The notes beneath the pieces were generated by a model. It saw nothing but the letters and a program-made list of their open reading frames with translations, did no database searches and was not told the DNA's origin. This document shows positions 5,292-12,718 of a stretch of DNA of 64,000 bases, piece by piece (the stretch's first letter is position 1; each line of letters starts with the position of its first letter). The position numbers and the translations under genes were made by a program. Origin of the DNA: an uncultured Kiritimatiellota bacterium (GTDB taxonomy: Bacteria; Verrucomicrobiota; Kiritimatiellia; RFP12; DVOR01); NCBI GenBank assembly GCA_944389585.1, contig CALXMW010000001.1, positions 7,748 through 71,747 on the forward strand, given 5' to 3'.

Positions 5292-7097
5292 ATGGAACTC
5301 CTCCACCTTCACCGCGCGGACGGCGCCCTCATCAAGACCTTCGACCTCGCCGCACTCCCCCGCCGCCCCCTCACCCTCGGGGCCAACCCCGCCGCCGACC
5401 TCCCCCTCCCCGAAGGCCCCGCCACCCTCGCTGCCCTCCTCCGCGACGAGGACGGCTGGCTCCTCGCACCCGCCGACCCCGCACTCCCCGAAACGCGCCT
5501 TCTTCCCGGCGAGCCCGCCGCACTCGGCCCCTTCCGCTTCCGCATCGAACGCGACGCCGTCCAAGCCCGCGCCACCCTCCTCTGGCGCGACGGCCGCGGC
5601 AAGACCGTCCACGCCGCGCCCCTCGCCGACGGACGCAACGCCCTCGCCTGGCTCCCCGACCATTCCGCGCCGGCCCTCAACCCACCCATCCCCGGGGACA
5701 AAATCTGCGACCTCTTCCTCGAGGGCGACACCCTCACCCTCATCGCCGGCGACGCCGAAGGGTCCGCCGACCGCCTCGCCTTCGCCCTCGGCGACCGCTT
5801 CGCCATCGGTTCCCTCCAAGGCCTCGCCCTCCCCACCCCCTTGGCCGAGCGCGCGCTGAGAACCCGCAATCCCCTCGCTTGGCCAGACCGCCGCATCCGC
5901 CTCCTCCTGCGCGTCGCCGCCGTTGTCGGCCTCATCCTCGGCCTCATCCTCCTCGCCTTGGCCCGACAGGCCAACGCCCTCCGCGCCGAACGCGACGCCC
6001 GCCTCCCCGCCGTCGTCGCCCTCCCCGCGCCCGAGCTGCCCGCCGACGCCGACCCCCTCACCCGCGATGCCGTCATCGCCTACGGCCAGCTCTTCCACGC
6101 CTGCCTCCCCGGCCTCCTCGACTCCCCCGAGGCCGCCGCCTCCGGAGACCTCCTCGCACGCCGCGCCGAAGAGCTCCTCAACGGGCTCCCAAAAGACGCC
6201 CCCGACCGAATCCCCCTCGCCCGCAAATGGGCCTTCCTCAAAAATCTCGCCGACCTCAAGCGTGCCGTCGCCGACGGCGACTGGCCCAGGCTCGGCCCCT
6301 CCCTCGACGCGCTGGACGCCGACGTCCTCGCCTACTACGACGCCGACCGCCTCCTCGCCGACGCCCACGCCCTGGACCGCTACTTCAACCAAGCCTACCC
6401 CGAGGCCTGCCGCGACCTCTGCCGGGGCGGCGCGCCCGCCTCCGTCGAACCCCGCCGCCAAACCCTCCGCGACAATCGCTTCCGCGGCCTCCCCATCGTC
6501 GCCAAACGCCTTGACGCGCTCGACCGCCACTGGGCCGCACTCCTCGCCTGGCACGACGCGGACCAAGCCTTCGGCGGCAGTGCCGCCGGTGCGGACGCCC
6601 TCGACGCCTGCGACGCCAAGGGCATCCTTCGCGAGGCCCTCTATGACCTCGAAGACGCCACCGACGCCTTGGAAGACCCCGCCCTGGACGCGCTCCTCCG
6701 CCATGTGCGCGACACCCTCTCCGGCAGGGTCGAAGCCCGCATCGCCGCCCGTTGCGGCGAAGGCGACGCCCTCCTCGCGCCCAACATCGCCACCCCGGGA
6801 GAGCTCCGCGCCCTTGCCCGCCTGGCCCGCGCCCTCGGCACGCCCCGCGCCCAGGCCGCCGCCCAACGCGCTCAGGCCCGCGCCGACGCCATCGTCGCCG
6901 ACTACGAGCGCCGCTGCCGAGCCCTCATCGTCGACTACCGCCTCAAGCGCCTCGCCGGCGACGCCCCCGCCGCAGACGCCATCCTCGCCCAAATCCTCGC
7001 CCTCGGCCCCGCAGACAGCCCCTTCTGGGCCTGGGCCCAGCGCGAACAGGCCCGCGCCGCCAAACCGGGCGTGCCCCAACCGGAGGACCTCCCATGA
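5292..7097 (+). CDS. hypothetical protein, degenerate FHA-like N-terminus + single TM + long helical domain
   Basis: 601 aa; ATG 5292 with RBS ggagacacc inside ORF 4440..7097; TM RIRLLLRVAAVVGLILGLILLAL; Ala/Leu/Asp-rich C-terminus. Confidence 0.55.
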   Translation: MELLHLHRADGALIKTFDLAALPRRPLTLGANPAADLPLPEGPATLAALLRDEDGWLLAPADPALPETRLLPGEPAALGPFRFRIERDAVQARATLLWRDGRGKTVHAAPLADGRNALAWLPDHSAPALNPPIPGDKICDLFLEGDTLTLIAGDAEGSADRLAFALGDRFAIGSLQGLALPTPLAERALRTRNPLAWPDRRIRLLLRVAAVVGLILGLILLALARQANALRAERDARLPAVVALPAPELPADADPLTRDAVIAYGQLFHACLPGLLDSPEAAASGDLLARRAEELLNGLPKDAPDRIPLARKWAFLKNLADLKRAVADGDWPRLGPSLDALDADVLAYYDADRLLADAHALDRYFNQAYPEACRDLCRGGAPASVEPRRQTLRDNRFRGLPIVAKRLDALDRHWAALLAWHDADQAFGGSAAGADALDACDAKGILREALYDLEDATDALEDPALDALLRHVRDTLSGRVEARIAARCGEGDALLAPNIATPGELRALARLARALGTPRAQAAAQRAQARADAIVADYERRCRALIVDYRLKRLAGDAPAADAILAQILALGPADSPFWAWAQREQARAAKPGVPQPEDLP

Positions 7098-7936
7098 TCC
7101 GCAAACTCTGCTATCTCCTCTTCGGCATCCTTGTCGCACTCTGCGCCCTCAAGGCCATCACCGCCGCCAAGGCCCGCCGCGCCAGCACCCCGGCACCCGT
7201 GCCCCCCAGCGCGGAGGAGACCGCCACGCCCCTCGCCGGCAATGCCCTCCACATCCACTACCAGCCCTGGCAGCCCTACGCCGGCCACGACCCCATCTCC
7301 GGCCGCGACGGCTACTGCCTCGACGTCATCCACCGCATCTTCCCCCAAGCCACCCTCGCCTACGACGAACACCCCACCGACGCCCAGCTCATCGCGCACG
7401 TCGCCGACTCCCCTGAATGCGCCCTCGTCACCCTCGGCCGCCACCCCGACCTCCAAGGCTTCCCCCAGTCCAAGACCCCCATCGCCCACTACACCATCAC
7501 CGTCATCTCCCCGCGCAAAAACCCCTGGCGCTACACCAGCCCAGAGTCCCTCGAAAGCATCCGCCTCGCCTACTCCCGCACCTACCTCGACGCCCCCCTC
7601 GTCGCCGAGCACTGGGCCCGCCACAAAGACGACCCCAAGCGCGCCCTCCTCCTCCCCGACGACACCTCCGCCGACGACTGGCTCCCCCGCGCACTCGCCG
7701 GAGACTGCGACGCCATCGTCCTCACCCTCGCCGCCGCCCGCTGGGATGCCGACAACACCAACCTCGTCCTCCGCGACGACTTCCGCGATGCCGGCCCCAT
7801 CCAGCAAGTCCCCCTCTTCCTCACCCTCTCCCCCAAGAACCCCAACGCCCCCGCCATCCTCGAAGAATTCGAGCAAGGCATGGCCCGCCTCCGCGCCGAC
7901 GGCACCCTCGACCGCCTCCACGCACTCTACTTCTAA
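7094..7936 (+). CDS. periplasmic substrate-binding-like protein (type-2 PBP fold, family-3 SBP-like)
   Basis: 280 aa; ATGA overlap with upstream gene; N-terminal signal/anchor (LCYLLFGILVALCAL); no ABC permease or ATPase partner nearby. Confidence 0.6.
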   Translation: MIRKLCYLLFGILVALCALKAITAAKARRASTPAPVPPSAEETATPLAGNALHIHYQPWQPYAGHDPISGRDGYCLDVIHRIFPQATLAYDEHPTDAQLIAHVADSPECALVTLGRHPDLQGFPQSKTPIAHYTITVISPRKNPWRYTSPESLESIRLAYSRTYLDAPLVAEHWARHKDDPKRALLLPDDTSADDWLPRALAGDCDAIVLTLAAARWDADNTNLVLRDDFRDAGPIQQVPLFLTLSPKNPNAPAILEEFEQGMARLRADGTLDRLHALYF

Positions 7937-7962
7937 GCGGCGCGCCTGCGCTCCGGAGAGAC

Positions 7963-8086
7963 CCCATAAGGGTCCGCCGCCAACCCTTATAAGGGTTGGC
8001 CTCGGCCCCTTATAAGGTCTCGACCCCAACCCTTATAAGGTCTCACGCCGGACCCTCCAAGGGTGCAGGACGGCCCCCTTAGGGGA
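7963..8086. repeat. tandem array of six ~23-bp units each centred on a CCTTATAAGG-type palindrome
   Basis: Cores at 7963, 7984 (perfect 12-mer CCCTTATAAGGG), 8007, 8030, 8053 (CCTCCAAGGG), 8075 (CCCTTAGGGG); period 21-23 bp; between SBP-like gene stop and moxR promoter. Confidence 0.8.
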
Positions 8087-8107
8087 AATCCGGCAGACAG
8101 GGCACGT

Positions 8108-8123
8108 GGGATTGAAGTATAAT
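8108..8123 (+). promoter_or_regulatory. candidate promoter of moxR (GGGATTGAAGTATAAT, -10 TATAAT 8118-8123)
   Basis: Consensus TATAAT about 27 nt before ATG 8150; variant of the recurring GGAwT..G.TAnnnT motif. Confidence 0.45.
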
Positions 8124-8149
8124 GGTGACGTTGAACGAAAGGACATGCC

Positions 8150-9136
8150 ATGGCTGAGAATGACGAGACGATTGCGCGGTGCGCGCCGTTGCTGGCGGCA
8201 ATCCGCGGCGAGGTGGGCAAGGCGTTGGTGGGGCAGGAGCGGATGATGGACGCGCTGCTCATCGCGTTGATGACGGGCGGGCATATCCTGCTGGAGGGCG
8301 TGCCGGGTTTGGCGAAGACGACGGCGGTGCGGGCGCTCGCGGCGGCGTTGGGGTTGGAAACCAGGCGGATTTCCTTCACGCCGGATCTGTTGCCGGCGGA
8401 CGTGGTGGGCAGCCTGGTCTACAACCAGAAGGAGGGAACGTTCACGCCGCACAAAGGGCCAGTCTTCGCGAACCTGCTCATCGCCGACGAGATCAACCGC
8501 GCGCCGGCAAAGGTGCAGTCGGCCCTCCTCGAGGCGATGCAGGAGCGCCAGGTGACGCTCGGCGACGAGAGTTACCCCTTGCCGCGCCCCTTCCTGGTGA
8601 TGGCCACGCAGAACCCCATCGAGCAGGAGGGCACCTATCCCTTGCCCGAGGCGCAGACCGACCGCTTCATGCTCAAGTGCGTGGTGCGCCATCCCGGCCG
8701 AGAGGACGAGCGGCGCATCATGAACCGCCTCACCCAGCCCGCGGCCCTGGCCGCCACGCCCAAACAATGCGTCTCGCGCGAGGACATCGACCTGCTGCTC
8801 TCCGCCGCCGAGAAGGTCTATTGCGACGCGAAGGTGGACGATTACATCCTTGACCTCGTCTTCGCCACGCGCGACCCCGCCGCCTTCAAGGGCCTGGAAG
8901 GCCTCAAAGACGCCATCCAGCTGGGCGTCTCGCCGCGCGGCTCCATCTGCCTGAAGCAGGCCGCCCGCGCCAACGCCCTCCTGCGCGGCCGCGCCTACGC
9001 CACCCCGCAGGACGTGAAAGAGACGGCCCACGACGTGCTGCGCCACCGCCTCCTGCTCACCTACGAGGCCGAGGCCGAGGCGCTCACCCCGGACGCCGTC
9101 ATCGACCGCCTCCTCGCCGAAATCCCCGTCCCGTGA
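8150..9136 (+). CDS. moxR: MoxR-family AAA+ ATPase
   Basis: 328 aa; Walker A GVPGLAKTT, Walker B LLIADEINRA, MoxR/RavA-like layout. Confidence 0.9.
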   Translation: MAENDETIARCAPLLAAIRGEVGKALVGQERMMDALLIALMTGGHILLEGVPGLAKTTAVRALAAALGLETRRISFTPDLLPADVVGSLVYNQKEGTFTPHKGPVFANLLIADEINRAPAKVQSALLEAMQERQVTLGDESYPLPRPFLVMATQNPIEQEGTYPLPEAQTDRFMLKCVVRHPGREDERRIMNRLTQPAALAATPKQCVSREDIDLLLSAAEKVYCDAKVDDYILDLVFATRDPAAFKGLEGLKDAIQLGVSPRGSICLKQAARANALLRGRAYATPQDVKETAHDVLRHRLLLTYEAEAEALTPDAVIDRLLAEIPVP

Positions 9137-11341: not shown

Positions 11342-11418
<77 letters not shown>

Positions 11419-11425
11419 TTCAGGA

Positions 11426-11502
11426 TGGCGCGCCTTGGAGGATTTGAACCTCCAACCTTCTGATCCGTAGTCAGATGCTCTATCCAATTGAGCTAAAGGC
11501 GC
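11426..11502 (-). tRNA. tRNA-Arg (anticodon ACG)
   Basis: Reverse complement GCGCCTT...; perfect 7-bp acceptor stem, anticodon loop CTACGGA, T-loop TTCAAAT, discriminator G, encoded CCA. Confidence 0.9.
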
Positions 11503-11530: not shown

Positions 11531-11704
11531 CCACTCTGGGCGCAAGCACTTTTTTGCAACTTTTTTGCAATCCCTCGCTAACACATTGCCGTTGCGTCAA
11601 TTTTCGCTTGTTGGGAAAAGGGCGGTGGCGCCCCGAAGGCCCCCTCCCGCGCGCCCCGCGGCGCACGGGGCGGGGAGGCGCCGCCCGGTCAAGCGGGGAG
11701 CCTC

Positions 11705-11761
11705 TCCTAGTGGTCGGGAGCGTACTGCCTAGTGGTCGAGGGACTACCACTCTAGTGGTCG
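11705..11761. repeat. three direct repeats of CTAGTGGTCG(G/A)G at 22-23-bp spacing
   Basis: Copies at 11707, 11729 and 11752; third copy sits in the palindrome ACCACTCTAGTGGT; 70-125 bp upstream of the accD -10. Confidence 0.7.
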
Positions 11762-11830
11762 GGGGCGAACCACCGGGCAGGGCTCCCCGGGCGACCGGGC
11801 GGCCCCCGGGCGGCGCGTGCAAAGCCCGGG

Positions 11831-11881: not shown

Positions 11882-12718
11882 ATGGCTTGGTTCACGAAGG
11901 CGCAGGAGGCGCCGCTGCGCGTCCCCACCGAGGCGCTCTGGAACGTCTGCAAGAAATGCGGCGCGTACACGCCCAAGGACGAGTACGCGGCGAACCTGAA
12001 GGTGTGCCCGGCGTGCGGCGCGCATGGCCGGCTCTCGGCGCGCGAGCGCATCGCGTTGCTGGCGGACAAGGGCTCCTTCAAGGAGATCGCCGCCGAGGTC
12101 ATCGCGCACGACCCGCTGGCCTTCCACGACGCGAAGGACGCCTACGCCCAGAAGGTGGCCGCGACGCGCGAGAAGACGGGCATCGGGGAATCAATCGTCG
12201 TGGGCACGGCGAAGCTCGACGGCATCCCCGTGGTGCTCGGCGCGATGGACTTCCGCTTCATGGGCGGCTCGCTGGGCTCCGGCACGGGCGAGCGCATCCT
12301 CCAGGCCGCCGAGACGGCCCGCAGGCTGAAGCGCCCGCTCATCCTCTGCACCGCCTCGGGCGGCGCGCGCATGCAGGAGGGTATCGTCTCGCTCATGCAG
12401 ATGGCCAAGACCTGCGCCGCCATCCAGCGCCTGCGCGACGAGGGCCTGCTCTATGTCTCCGTCATGACCGACCCCACCACCGGCGGCGTCTCGGCCTCCT
12501 ACGCGATGGTGGGCGACCTCAACATCGCCGAGCCCAAGACGCTCATCGGCTTCGCCGGGCGCCGCGTCATCGAGACGACCATCAAGCAGAAGTTGCCGCC
12601 GGAGTTCCAGACCTCGGAATACCTGCTGGAGCACGGCTTCCTGGACAAAATCGTGGCGCGCAAGGACCTCAAGGCCTTCCTCGCCAAGACGATCCGGTTC
12701 CTGACGGCCGCGAAGTAA
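11882..12718 (+). CDS. accD: acetyl-CoA carboxylase carboxyltransferase beta subunit
   Basis: 278 aa; N-terminal zinc ribbon CKKCG...CPACG; carboxyltransferase fold. Confidence 0.95.
   Translation: MAWFTKAQEAPLRVPTEALWNVCKKCGAYTPKDEYAANLKVCPACGAHGRLSARERIALLADKGSFKEIAAEVIAHDPLAFHDAKDAYAQKVAATREKTGIGESIVVGTAKLDGIPVVLGAMDFRFMGGSLGSGTGERILQAAETARRLKRPLILCTASGGARMQEGIVSLMQMAKTCAAIQRLRDEGLLYVSVMTDPTTGGVSASYAMVGDLNIAEPKTLIGFAGRRVIETTIKQKLPPEFQTSEYLLEHGFLDKIVARKDLKAFLAKTIRFLTAAK

Follow-up and report, generated by a model that had tools for sequence, protein, structure and literature searches.

Comparison of loci indicates that the palindrome array found between the end of a Tad-like operon and moxR in an uncultured Kiritimatiellota bacterium is one copy of a dispersed, optional and non-coding intergenic family, made of four to six tandem units of about 23 bp in which core and period are both constrained. 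The array lies in a 64,000-nt stretch of DNA, hereafter the window. The explanation that we favour, to which we give a little less than an even chance, is that such arrays act at the DNA level as multi-site platforms for a dimeric architectural protein, with a protein of the HU-HIG type as the best candidate, and that the copy in the window would insulate Tad from moxR.

Read directly from the sequence, the array extends from 7958 to 8085 and contains six units of ~23 bp, each an imperfect palindrome of 12-18 bp with an AT-rich centre, accompanied by a GC-rich linker; neither the array nor its units were assigned to a strand. Unit 1 (GAGACCCCATAAGGGTC, 7958-7974) is degenerate, runs in the orientation opposite to units 3 and 4, and is of the same first-unit type as in a locus of a related genome (L027, see below). 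Unit 2 (CAACCCTTATAAGGGTTG, 7981-7998) is a perfect 18-bp palindrome, and units 3 (GCCCCTTATAAGGTCTC, 8005-8021) and 4 (AACCCTTATAAGGTCTC, 8028-8044) were delimited by direct reading and motif counts. Units 5 (ACCCTCCAAGGGT, 8052-8064) and 6 (CCCCCTTAGGGG, 8074-8085) are degenerate, the last with a shortened centre, so that the degenerate units occupy the array ends; the length of their centres varies (12, 11 and 9-10 nt). The unit form in this lineage is GAGACC-TTATAA-GGGTC around the 10-mer CCTTATAAGG, with a free linker of 6-12 nt. The core centres fall at about 7967, 7989.5, 8012.5, 8035.5, 8058 and 8079.5, giving successive spacings of 22.5, 23, 23, 22.5 and 21.5 bp, and a period of 23 was called both by Tandem Repeats Finder (TRF) and by a second repeat finder. 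The first-pass annotation had described palindromes phased at about two helical turns, and this anatomy holds. It had also set the array apart from CRISPR, rightly so: the cores measure 11-18 bp and the linkers 6-12 nt, and the locus contains neither repeats of 23-47 bp with unique spacers of similar length nor any cas genes.

Exact copies of CCTTATAAGG occur within the 64 kb at 7985, 8008 and 8031 only, against a chance expectation of 0.16 matches per window, and none of 100 dinucleotide shuffles reached four matches. The looser pattern CCYT[W1-5]RGG recovered the array and a single chance site in the window. With one such palindromic array in 64 kb, the copy number looks modest rather than REP-like high, as judged from this window alone. 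A second tandem array, non-palindromic and with a period of 22-23, is present in the window at 11696-11774, where CTAGTGGTCG is found at 11707, 11729 and 11752. It lies between a minus-strand tRNA pair (11345-11502) and an accD-like gene (ATG at 11883), and its period class matches that of the arrays flanking HU-HIG genes in other bacteria.

Upstream of the palindrome array, the Tad-like operon encodes RcpC, a secretin, T2SSE and two T2SSF proteins, and ends with a plus-strand gene (7094-7936) for a 280-aa protein that has no Pfam match. The array begins 22 nt past the TAA stop codon of this gene (7934-7936). On the other side, 8 nt separate the array end from a sigma70-like promoter match (CAGACA-18-TATAAT, 8094-8123, plus strand), which belongs to the moxR promoter/leader block (8091-8149). 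This block is kept in sister species, and the array falls just outside it. The moxR gene itself (8150-9136, plus strand, ATG at 8150) encodes an AAA_3/bpMoxR ATPase and is followed by a DUF58/VWA gene. Just 5' of TATAAT, GGGCACGTGGGATTGAAG at 8100-8117 resembles a sigma-54 -24/-12 element, from which it deviates by one position in spacing and by having GA where GC is expected; around these positions, only GGG-N9-ATTGAAGTATAAT is kept in the contigs L133 and L005. A sigma-54 UAS reading of GGCACG-N5-TTGA near the promoter was rejected, as the spacing is wrong for the sigma-54 consensus and the motif is not conserved in L133.

An identical MoxR protein is encoded on at least 15 metagenome contigs. 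Array length is invariant across nine contigs of the source species, and the array is identical in eight of the nine same-species contigs compared, bar two SNPs (A7982G and C8006A), each of which yields a GACCC arm. The ninth contig, L005, carries moxR and no array, with unrelated DNA up to ATTGAAGTATAAT unless the contig is chimeric. Upstream of a 100% identical MoxR, this contig (positions 1-1290; ERZ16268071 scaffold_3248) contains the 3' end of lysS, AT-rich DNA, a Cas3-HD fragment and a pair of I-E-like CRISPR repeats. Either the strain is rearranged, with a breakpoint ~20 bp away from the array, or the assembly is chimeric.

Orthologs of the 280-aa upstream protein (66-90% identity) were traced to their contigs. 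In two of these (L133 and L139; upstream protein 88% identical), the order from the last Tad gene to moxR is retained and the array is absent. The block GGCAGACAGGG...ATTGAAGTATAATGGTGACGTTGAACGAAAGGAC of these contigs aligns to window positions 8091-8144, and their 385-415-bp spacer holds no CCTTATAAGG-like unit. No array follows the ortholog in L131 and L134, where adhE lies downstream, or in L136, which has the same leader sequence. In L140, where the ortholog is 86% identical, a terminator-like hairpin comes after the ortholog and precedes a four-unit array composed of AAACCCTTAAGGGTTT, CCCTTAGGG (twice) and CCCTTTAGGG, with a spacing of 21-22 bp and the CCCTTAAGGG version of the core; the next gene encodes an AAA_14/DUF4143 protein and not moxR. 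Since sister species lack the array, any function that it has must be dispensable. Sequence comparison thus shows the array to be an optional insertion that separates the Tad operon end from the conserved promoter of moxR and forms no part of the conserved control region of either gene. The same contigs revealed a GC-rich element of ~65 nt (GGGATGGGCACGG...GAACGGTGAAG.GCCCAG; L133 4110-4175 and L134 1505-1570), located upstream of moxR in one sister species and of adhE in the other. The window lacks this element, which could be a small RNA or a further dispersed repeat.

Near-identical units occur elsewhere in this lineage. A related Kiritimatiellaeota MAG from the same sampling project, BRZ_KQ_bin80, contains at least two loci (L027 and L090) with four to five units of GAGACCTTATAAGGGTC at a 23-bp period. 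Both are collinear with the window array, with C(C/T)ATAAGGG as the first unit in L027 and a last unit of the CCCTT(T)A(A)GGGG type. Outside the units, neither locus has nucleotide similarity to the window. The L027 array lies between divergent genes, for a 549-aa protein of unknown function and a ZIP transporter, and the L090 array overlaps the 3' end of a ComEC gene; none of these genes has a functional link to Tad or MoxR. Comparison of the units shows identical cores (11-17 nt) both inside one array and from one array to another, and linkers that differ.

These loci bear on the proposal, which extends the iteron-like or locus-specific regulatory array of the first-pass annotation, that the array is a locus-specific operator, UAS or iteron series controlling the transcription of moxR or Tad, or replication. 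Its position at about -30 to -160 from the predicted moxR start would suit such a role, as would palindromes fit for a dimeric regulator and spaced by about two helical turns. However, the promoter block persists without the array in L133 and L139, moxR occurs without it in a contig of the same species, and the unit is also found beside ZIP, ComEC and AAA_14 genes (L027, L090 and L140) and in many phyla, where the flanking genes share no functional theme. Nor are a rep gene, DnaA boxes or origin features adjacent to the array. A dedicated moxR operator or iteron is thus largely refuted by the locus comparisons, and we regard this proposal as very improbable. A tempting but wrong annotation for moxR or Tad can be removed, and the array should be masked in annotation as a dispersed repeat, since it also seeds spurious ORFs.

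To define the family more broadly, we scanned 185,579 genomes, one per species, for CCTTATAAGG-N8-20-CCTTATAAGG, a pattern that fixes the core, and found at least 119 loci, L027 and L090 among them. The same 10-bp palindrome and 23-bp period are thus found in Bacteroidota, PVC bacteria, spirochaetes and others. Among the matches listed, neighbouring CCTTATAAGG copies are most often 23 bp apart (a sharp peak of 44 pairs), and this spacing is seen in Marinifilum, Flammeovirga, Tannerella (at least six loci), Bacteroidaceae (at least four loci in one MAG), Prevotellaceae and Thermophagus, as well as in Planctomycetaceae, Myxococcales, Anaerolineales and Mycobacterium. Treponema shows a spacing of 24 bp, and a second peak at 19 bp comes mostly, among the matches listed, from one Cytophagales genome. 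In the ~950 kb that these loci comprise, no peak at 23 bp is seen for tandem arrays lacking the CCTTATAAGG core, which indicates that core and period go together. In L053, L079, L118 and L126, neighbouring arrays change to other cores and the period is unchanged. Palindromic symmetry reaches ~5 nt past the 10-mer (41-55% complementary positions versus 25-31% expected) with no base preference; the real unit thus comprises a palindrome that can reach ~20 bp and a linker of ~3 nt.

Of 42 loci, 40 have their array in DNA free of long ORFs. Among the matches listed, about seven are placed between convergent genes, about four between divergent genes and the rest between genes in tandem, and their neighbours are unrelated housekeeping genes (e.g., TatC, galactokinase, TilS, RibF, FakA and FtsX). 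Rfam has no family that matches the window array or those of 18 related loci, the weak sub-threshold miRNA/Pxr matches being typical of long hairpins. Viral contigs contained no 23-bp pairs of CCTTATAAGG. In JGI metagenomes, the lineage-specific two-unit pattern gave two matches, both unrelated, one of them a CCTTATAAGG microsatellite with a 12-14-bp period. The Prevotella array region had no nucleotide match in the plasmid collection. Literature searches for the CCTTATAAGG 10-mer returned only primers and eukaryotic CArG-box papers, and those for 23-bp tandem repeats in Bacteroides returned nothing relevant.

Two other repeats were encountered. In L129 (SXGQ01525541.1, positions 780-1195), more than 20 copies of CCTTATAAGG form a microsatellite-like run with a 12-14-bp period, and the palindrome has thus been amplified in nature at several different periods. 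In the Opitutales MAG Horse_feces372 (L015, L029, L031, L046 and L067) and in Verrucomicrobia UBA3869 (L037), four copies of CCTTATAAGGAAACG with a 15-bp period stand directly before the ATG of genes for a paralogous protein family (N-terminus MTKRVSLL...), and in two of the six loci (L029 and L037) they come just after an apparent tRNA 3' end. We did not retain these 15-bp arrays as family members; they are a separate feature, an SD-like repeated leader of a paralogous gene family.

Dispersal of this kind could also arise without any host function. The array could be a selfish or neutral minisatellite or a MITE remnant, one that was copied from one intergenic site to another, perhaps through an IS5-type transposase that recognises GAGACC ends, or was born by slippage, and is now decaying in place. 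The patchy presence among close species, the degenerate units at the array ends and the collinearity of whole arrays between unrelated loci are all compatible with this origin. A precedent is the BrickBuilt minisatellite, whose IS5-like TIRs are GAGACCTTTGCA/TGCAAAGGTCTC (PMC4596501); the window units end in GAGACC/GGTCTC. A change in copy number between strains was observed in a related array type, with one unit in L154 and two in L155. Yet no transposase adjoins any array examined, and the sequences that border the arrays of the window, L027, L090 and L140 cannot be aligned with one another and share no conserved leader, tail or terminal inverted repeats. A MITE model with leader, tail and TIRs was rejected because such conserved flanks are lacking. 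The constant array length within the source species also speaks against a neutral minisatellite, and the identity of cores alongside diverging linkers argues for constraint or conversion. Moreover, the sharing of a core and a 23-bp period by distant phyla is difficult to account for unless some common factor recognises them. We consider a selfish or neutral origin improbable, at roughly one chance in five.

The main rival to a DNA platform is a REP-like role at the RNA level, in which a hairpin cluster in the Tad 3' UTR would attenuate read-through into moxR and shield the upstream mRNA from 3' exonucleases. This role fits the window site well. The array closely follows the Tad stop codon, and units 1-3 together form a higher-order palindrome of 64 nt (7958-8021) whose predicted RNA fold reaches -41.5 kcal/mol on the plus strand (z of about -8.6). 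The 171-nt region 7930-8100 is also unusually stable as RNA (z = -4.85 on the plus strand), and unit 2 with its flanking bases (7979-8000) folds as RNA with -15.2 kcal/mol. Between Tad and the promoter of moxR, the plus strand has no other terminator-like site. The arms of the palindromes co-vary with no conservation of the bases themselves, and the L090 and L140 arrays are likewise found behind the 3' end of a gene. REP325 offers a precedent: in a tandem gene pair, it acts as a dual 3'-UTR terminator and stabiliser (bioRxiv 10.64898/2026.03.23.713779).

Several observations are at odds with an RNA role. Folded alone, units 3 and 4 (-4.2 and -1.0 kcal/mol, respectively) are unstable and do not surpass shuffled sequences, and yet they retain the exact core. 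The minus strand folds better than the sense strand, both for units 1-3 (-48.7 kcal/mol) and for the 171-nt region (z = -5.48). Despite the strong hairpin, there is no U-tract or T-run, and a terminator scan detected no intrinsic terminator on the plus strand. Palindrome mismatches over all arrays comprise 79 G-T and 57 A-C, mixed within each array, with no consistent strand bias of the kind that G-U pairing would leave. Some members lie beyond intrinsic terminators (L083, L094, L146 and L153) or between divergent genes (L027), positions that a 3'-end role does not fit. We consider the RNA explanation unlikely, with about one chance in four.

Evidence regarding a possible binding protein came from the genes beside the arrays. 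Flanking ORFs of the array loci were compared all-against-all by BLAST and clustered. Among the matches listed, the only family recurring in unrelated genomes beside CCTTATAAGG arrays was HU-HIG / HU-DNA_bdg+DUF4469; paralogous genes of ~1,050 and ~600 aa were also shared, beside Tannerella arrays. HU-DNA_bdg (PF14848) + DUF4469 (PF14734) proteins are encoded at L078, L083, L094, L075 and L093, with the array just 3' of the gene and, in two of these loci, after the gene's own terminator. An HU-HIG (PF18291) protein is encoded at the array loci L080/L086/L089.

The association was also seen from the side of the genes. When HU-HIG(Ig) loci were sampled blind to repeats, nine of ten had arrays of 21-25 bp within ~200 bp. 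A tblastn search of the plasmid collection with HU-HIG proteins found six DUF4469-type loci. In five of them the stop codon is immediately followed by a 23-24-bp array, with units that are all different (L141, L142, L144 and L145 in Parabacteroides distasonis, and L146 in Fulvitalea); the sixth, a Treponema locus (L143), has no array. Profile searches and contig look-ups added four further HU-HIG loci with arrays: 22 bp x 6.3 upstream of the HU-HIG gene in L150, 22 bp x 2 in L151/152, a degenerate ~23-bp series in L153, seen by eye with no TRF call, and 25-bp CCCCTTGGGG units in one or two copies depending on the strain in L154-157. In a 50-kb control region of P. distasonis with 36 genes, exactly three arrays with a period of at least 15 were found (21, 22 and 23 bp), and all of them flank its two HU-family genes. 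The background of core-less 22-24-bp arrays is ~0.017 per kb, a value that comes from a biased sample, and 21-25-bp arrays are almost the only tandem repeats adjoining HU-HIG genes. Of note, the unit in these HU-HIG-flanking arrays (L141, L142, L144, L145, L146, L150-L157 and L160) differs between paralogues, and contigs often end right behind HU-HIG / HU-DNA_bdg+DUF4469 genes. One HU-HIG contig has a neighbour with a prepilin-type N_methyl domain, which we take to suggest an origin in the PVC superphylum; this is the only hint that Kiritimatiellaeota may encode such a protein.

According to Burroughs et al. (PMC5499826), HU-HIG proteins form a Bacteroidetes clade that diversifies rapidly, has expanded within lineages and has on occasion been passed to spirochaetes; the genes have almost no conserved linkage, no target is known, and flanking DNA repeats are not mentioned. 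The same authors argue that these proteins are not sequence-specific transcription factors (PMC5499826). The literature searched contained no paper linking HU-HIG genes to flanking arrays. The window array resembles the HU-HIG-flanking class in its period of 21-25 bp, its palindromic core and its intergenic position, and has no HU-HIG gene within ~200 bp; jackhmmer searches with four HU-HIG proteins gave no match in any window ORF or in 16 kb of the related MAG. It could be that palindrome arrays of 21-25 bp, of which the CCTTATAAGG/23-bp type is the most widespread, are the cognate targets of HU-HIG proteins, and that the window array is an "orphan" platform for such a candidate protein. We hold this stronger claim as speculative and unlikely at present. 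If true, it would provide the first concrete ligand for a large and fast-evolving family of HU paralogues of unknown function, and a protein and its repeat array would together form a chromosomal element found across phyla. A causal link would make HU-HIG function directly testable, each protein against its own adjacent array, and would point to a shared mechanism underlying species-specific minisatellites, BrickBuilt among them.

The DNA-level platform is preferred because the core and the 23-bp period are constant across phyla, the linkers are free, the arrays are indifferent to transcription context and HU-HIG genes are associated with them. The lack of a strand bias between G-T and A-C mismatches, and the arrays beyond intrinsic terminators or between divergent genes, place the likely action at the level of DNA rather than RNA. 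In the mechanism that we propose, each 23-bp unit would be bound by one dimer of an architectural or nucleoid-associated protein, for which an HU paralogue of the HU-HIG type is the best candidate class. Alternatively, the AT-centred palindromes could extrude as cruciforms, to which the same protein would then bind. In its bound or structured state, the array would serve as an insulator that separates Tad from the promoter of moxR, and arrays would spread as whole units and then decay from their ends. In this respect, the first-pass annotation was right in its general idea that a phased-palindrome design suits a dimer-binding, architectural or insulating element. Several observations count against the platform. 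The variable centre length would be poorly tolerated by a rigid dimer and looks more like loop variation or decay, and symmetry past the 10-mer without base conservation also fits selection for hairpins. The dispensability implied by sister species that lack the array, the absence of an HU-HIG gene from the window and from 16 kb of the related MAG, and the argument that HU-HIG proteins are not sequence-specific transcription factors (PMC5499826) weigh in the same direction.

The design of the array recalls several known systems. As in the iterons of the RK2, F and P1 origins, which are bound by protein in a row, short units (17-22 bp) are phased at ~22-23 bp. Iterons are direct and non-palindromic repeats, located beside a rep gene and an AT-rich unwinding region and unique to an origin, whereas the window units are palindromic, recur at other loci and have a Tad operon and moxR as neighbours.

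REP/BIME elements such as REP325 of Escherichia coli are closer in several respects: they are extragenic imperfect palindromes clustered with linkers, able to form hairpins or cruciforms, and variable in presence between strains. The palindromes of 12-18 bp between genes in the window agree with the definition of REP/BIME as palindromic units outside genes. REP325 has six repeats, as does the window array, and interactions with HU and RNA have been reported for it (PMC4550694; bioRxiv 10.64898/2026.03.23.713779). In contrast, REP units measure ~35-40 nt, carry a GTAG foot, alternate in orientation, are associated with RAYT and number hundreds per genome, while the window units measure 17-18 bp with a strict 23-bp period; no GTAG/CTAC foot was found in or beside the six units.

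BrickBuilt of Porphyromonas gingivalis is a 23-nt minisatellite with ~19 intergenic copies (Klein et al. 2015, PMC4596501). It differs from the family described here in several ways: its unit has no sequence homology with the window unit; its units, which can number 22, are bordered by a leader and a tail with inverted repeats of the IS5 type, whereas the window family has no conserved flanks and four to six units; and its reported distribution is restricted to one species, against several phyla for the CCTTATAAGG/23-bp type. The similarities lie in the architecture. Both consist of tandem, imperfect 23-nt units without spacers, in intergenic positions at several loci, and the BrickBuilt unit consensus contains, by our own reading, a 10-bp AT-centred palindrome (CTCATATGAG), as here. 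The BrickBuilt TIR (GAGACC...) also resembles the GAGACC/GGTCTC ends of the window units, and one BrickBuilt copy abuts a PF00216 HU-like gene (PMC4596501). In design, BrickBuilt is the nearest described relative of the array.
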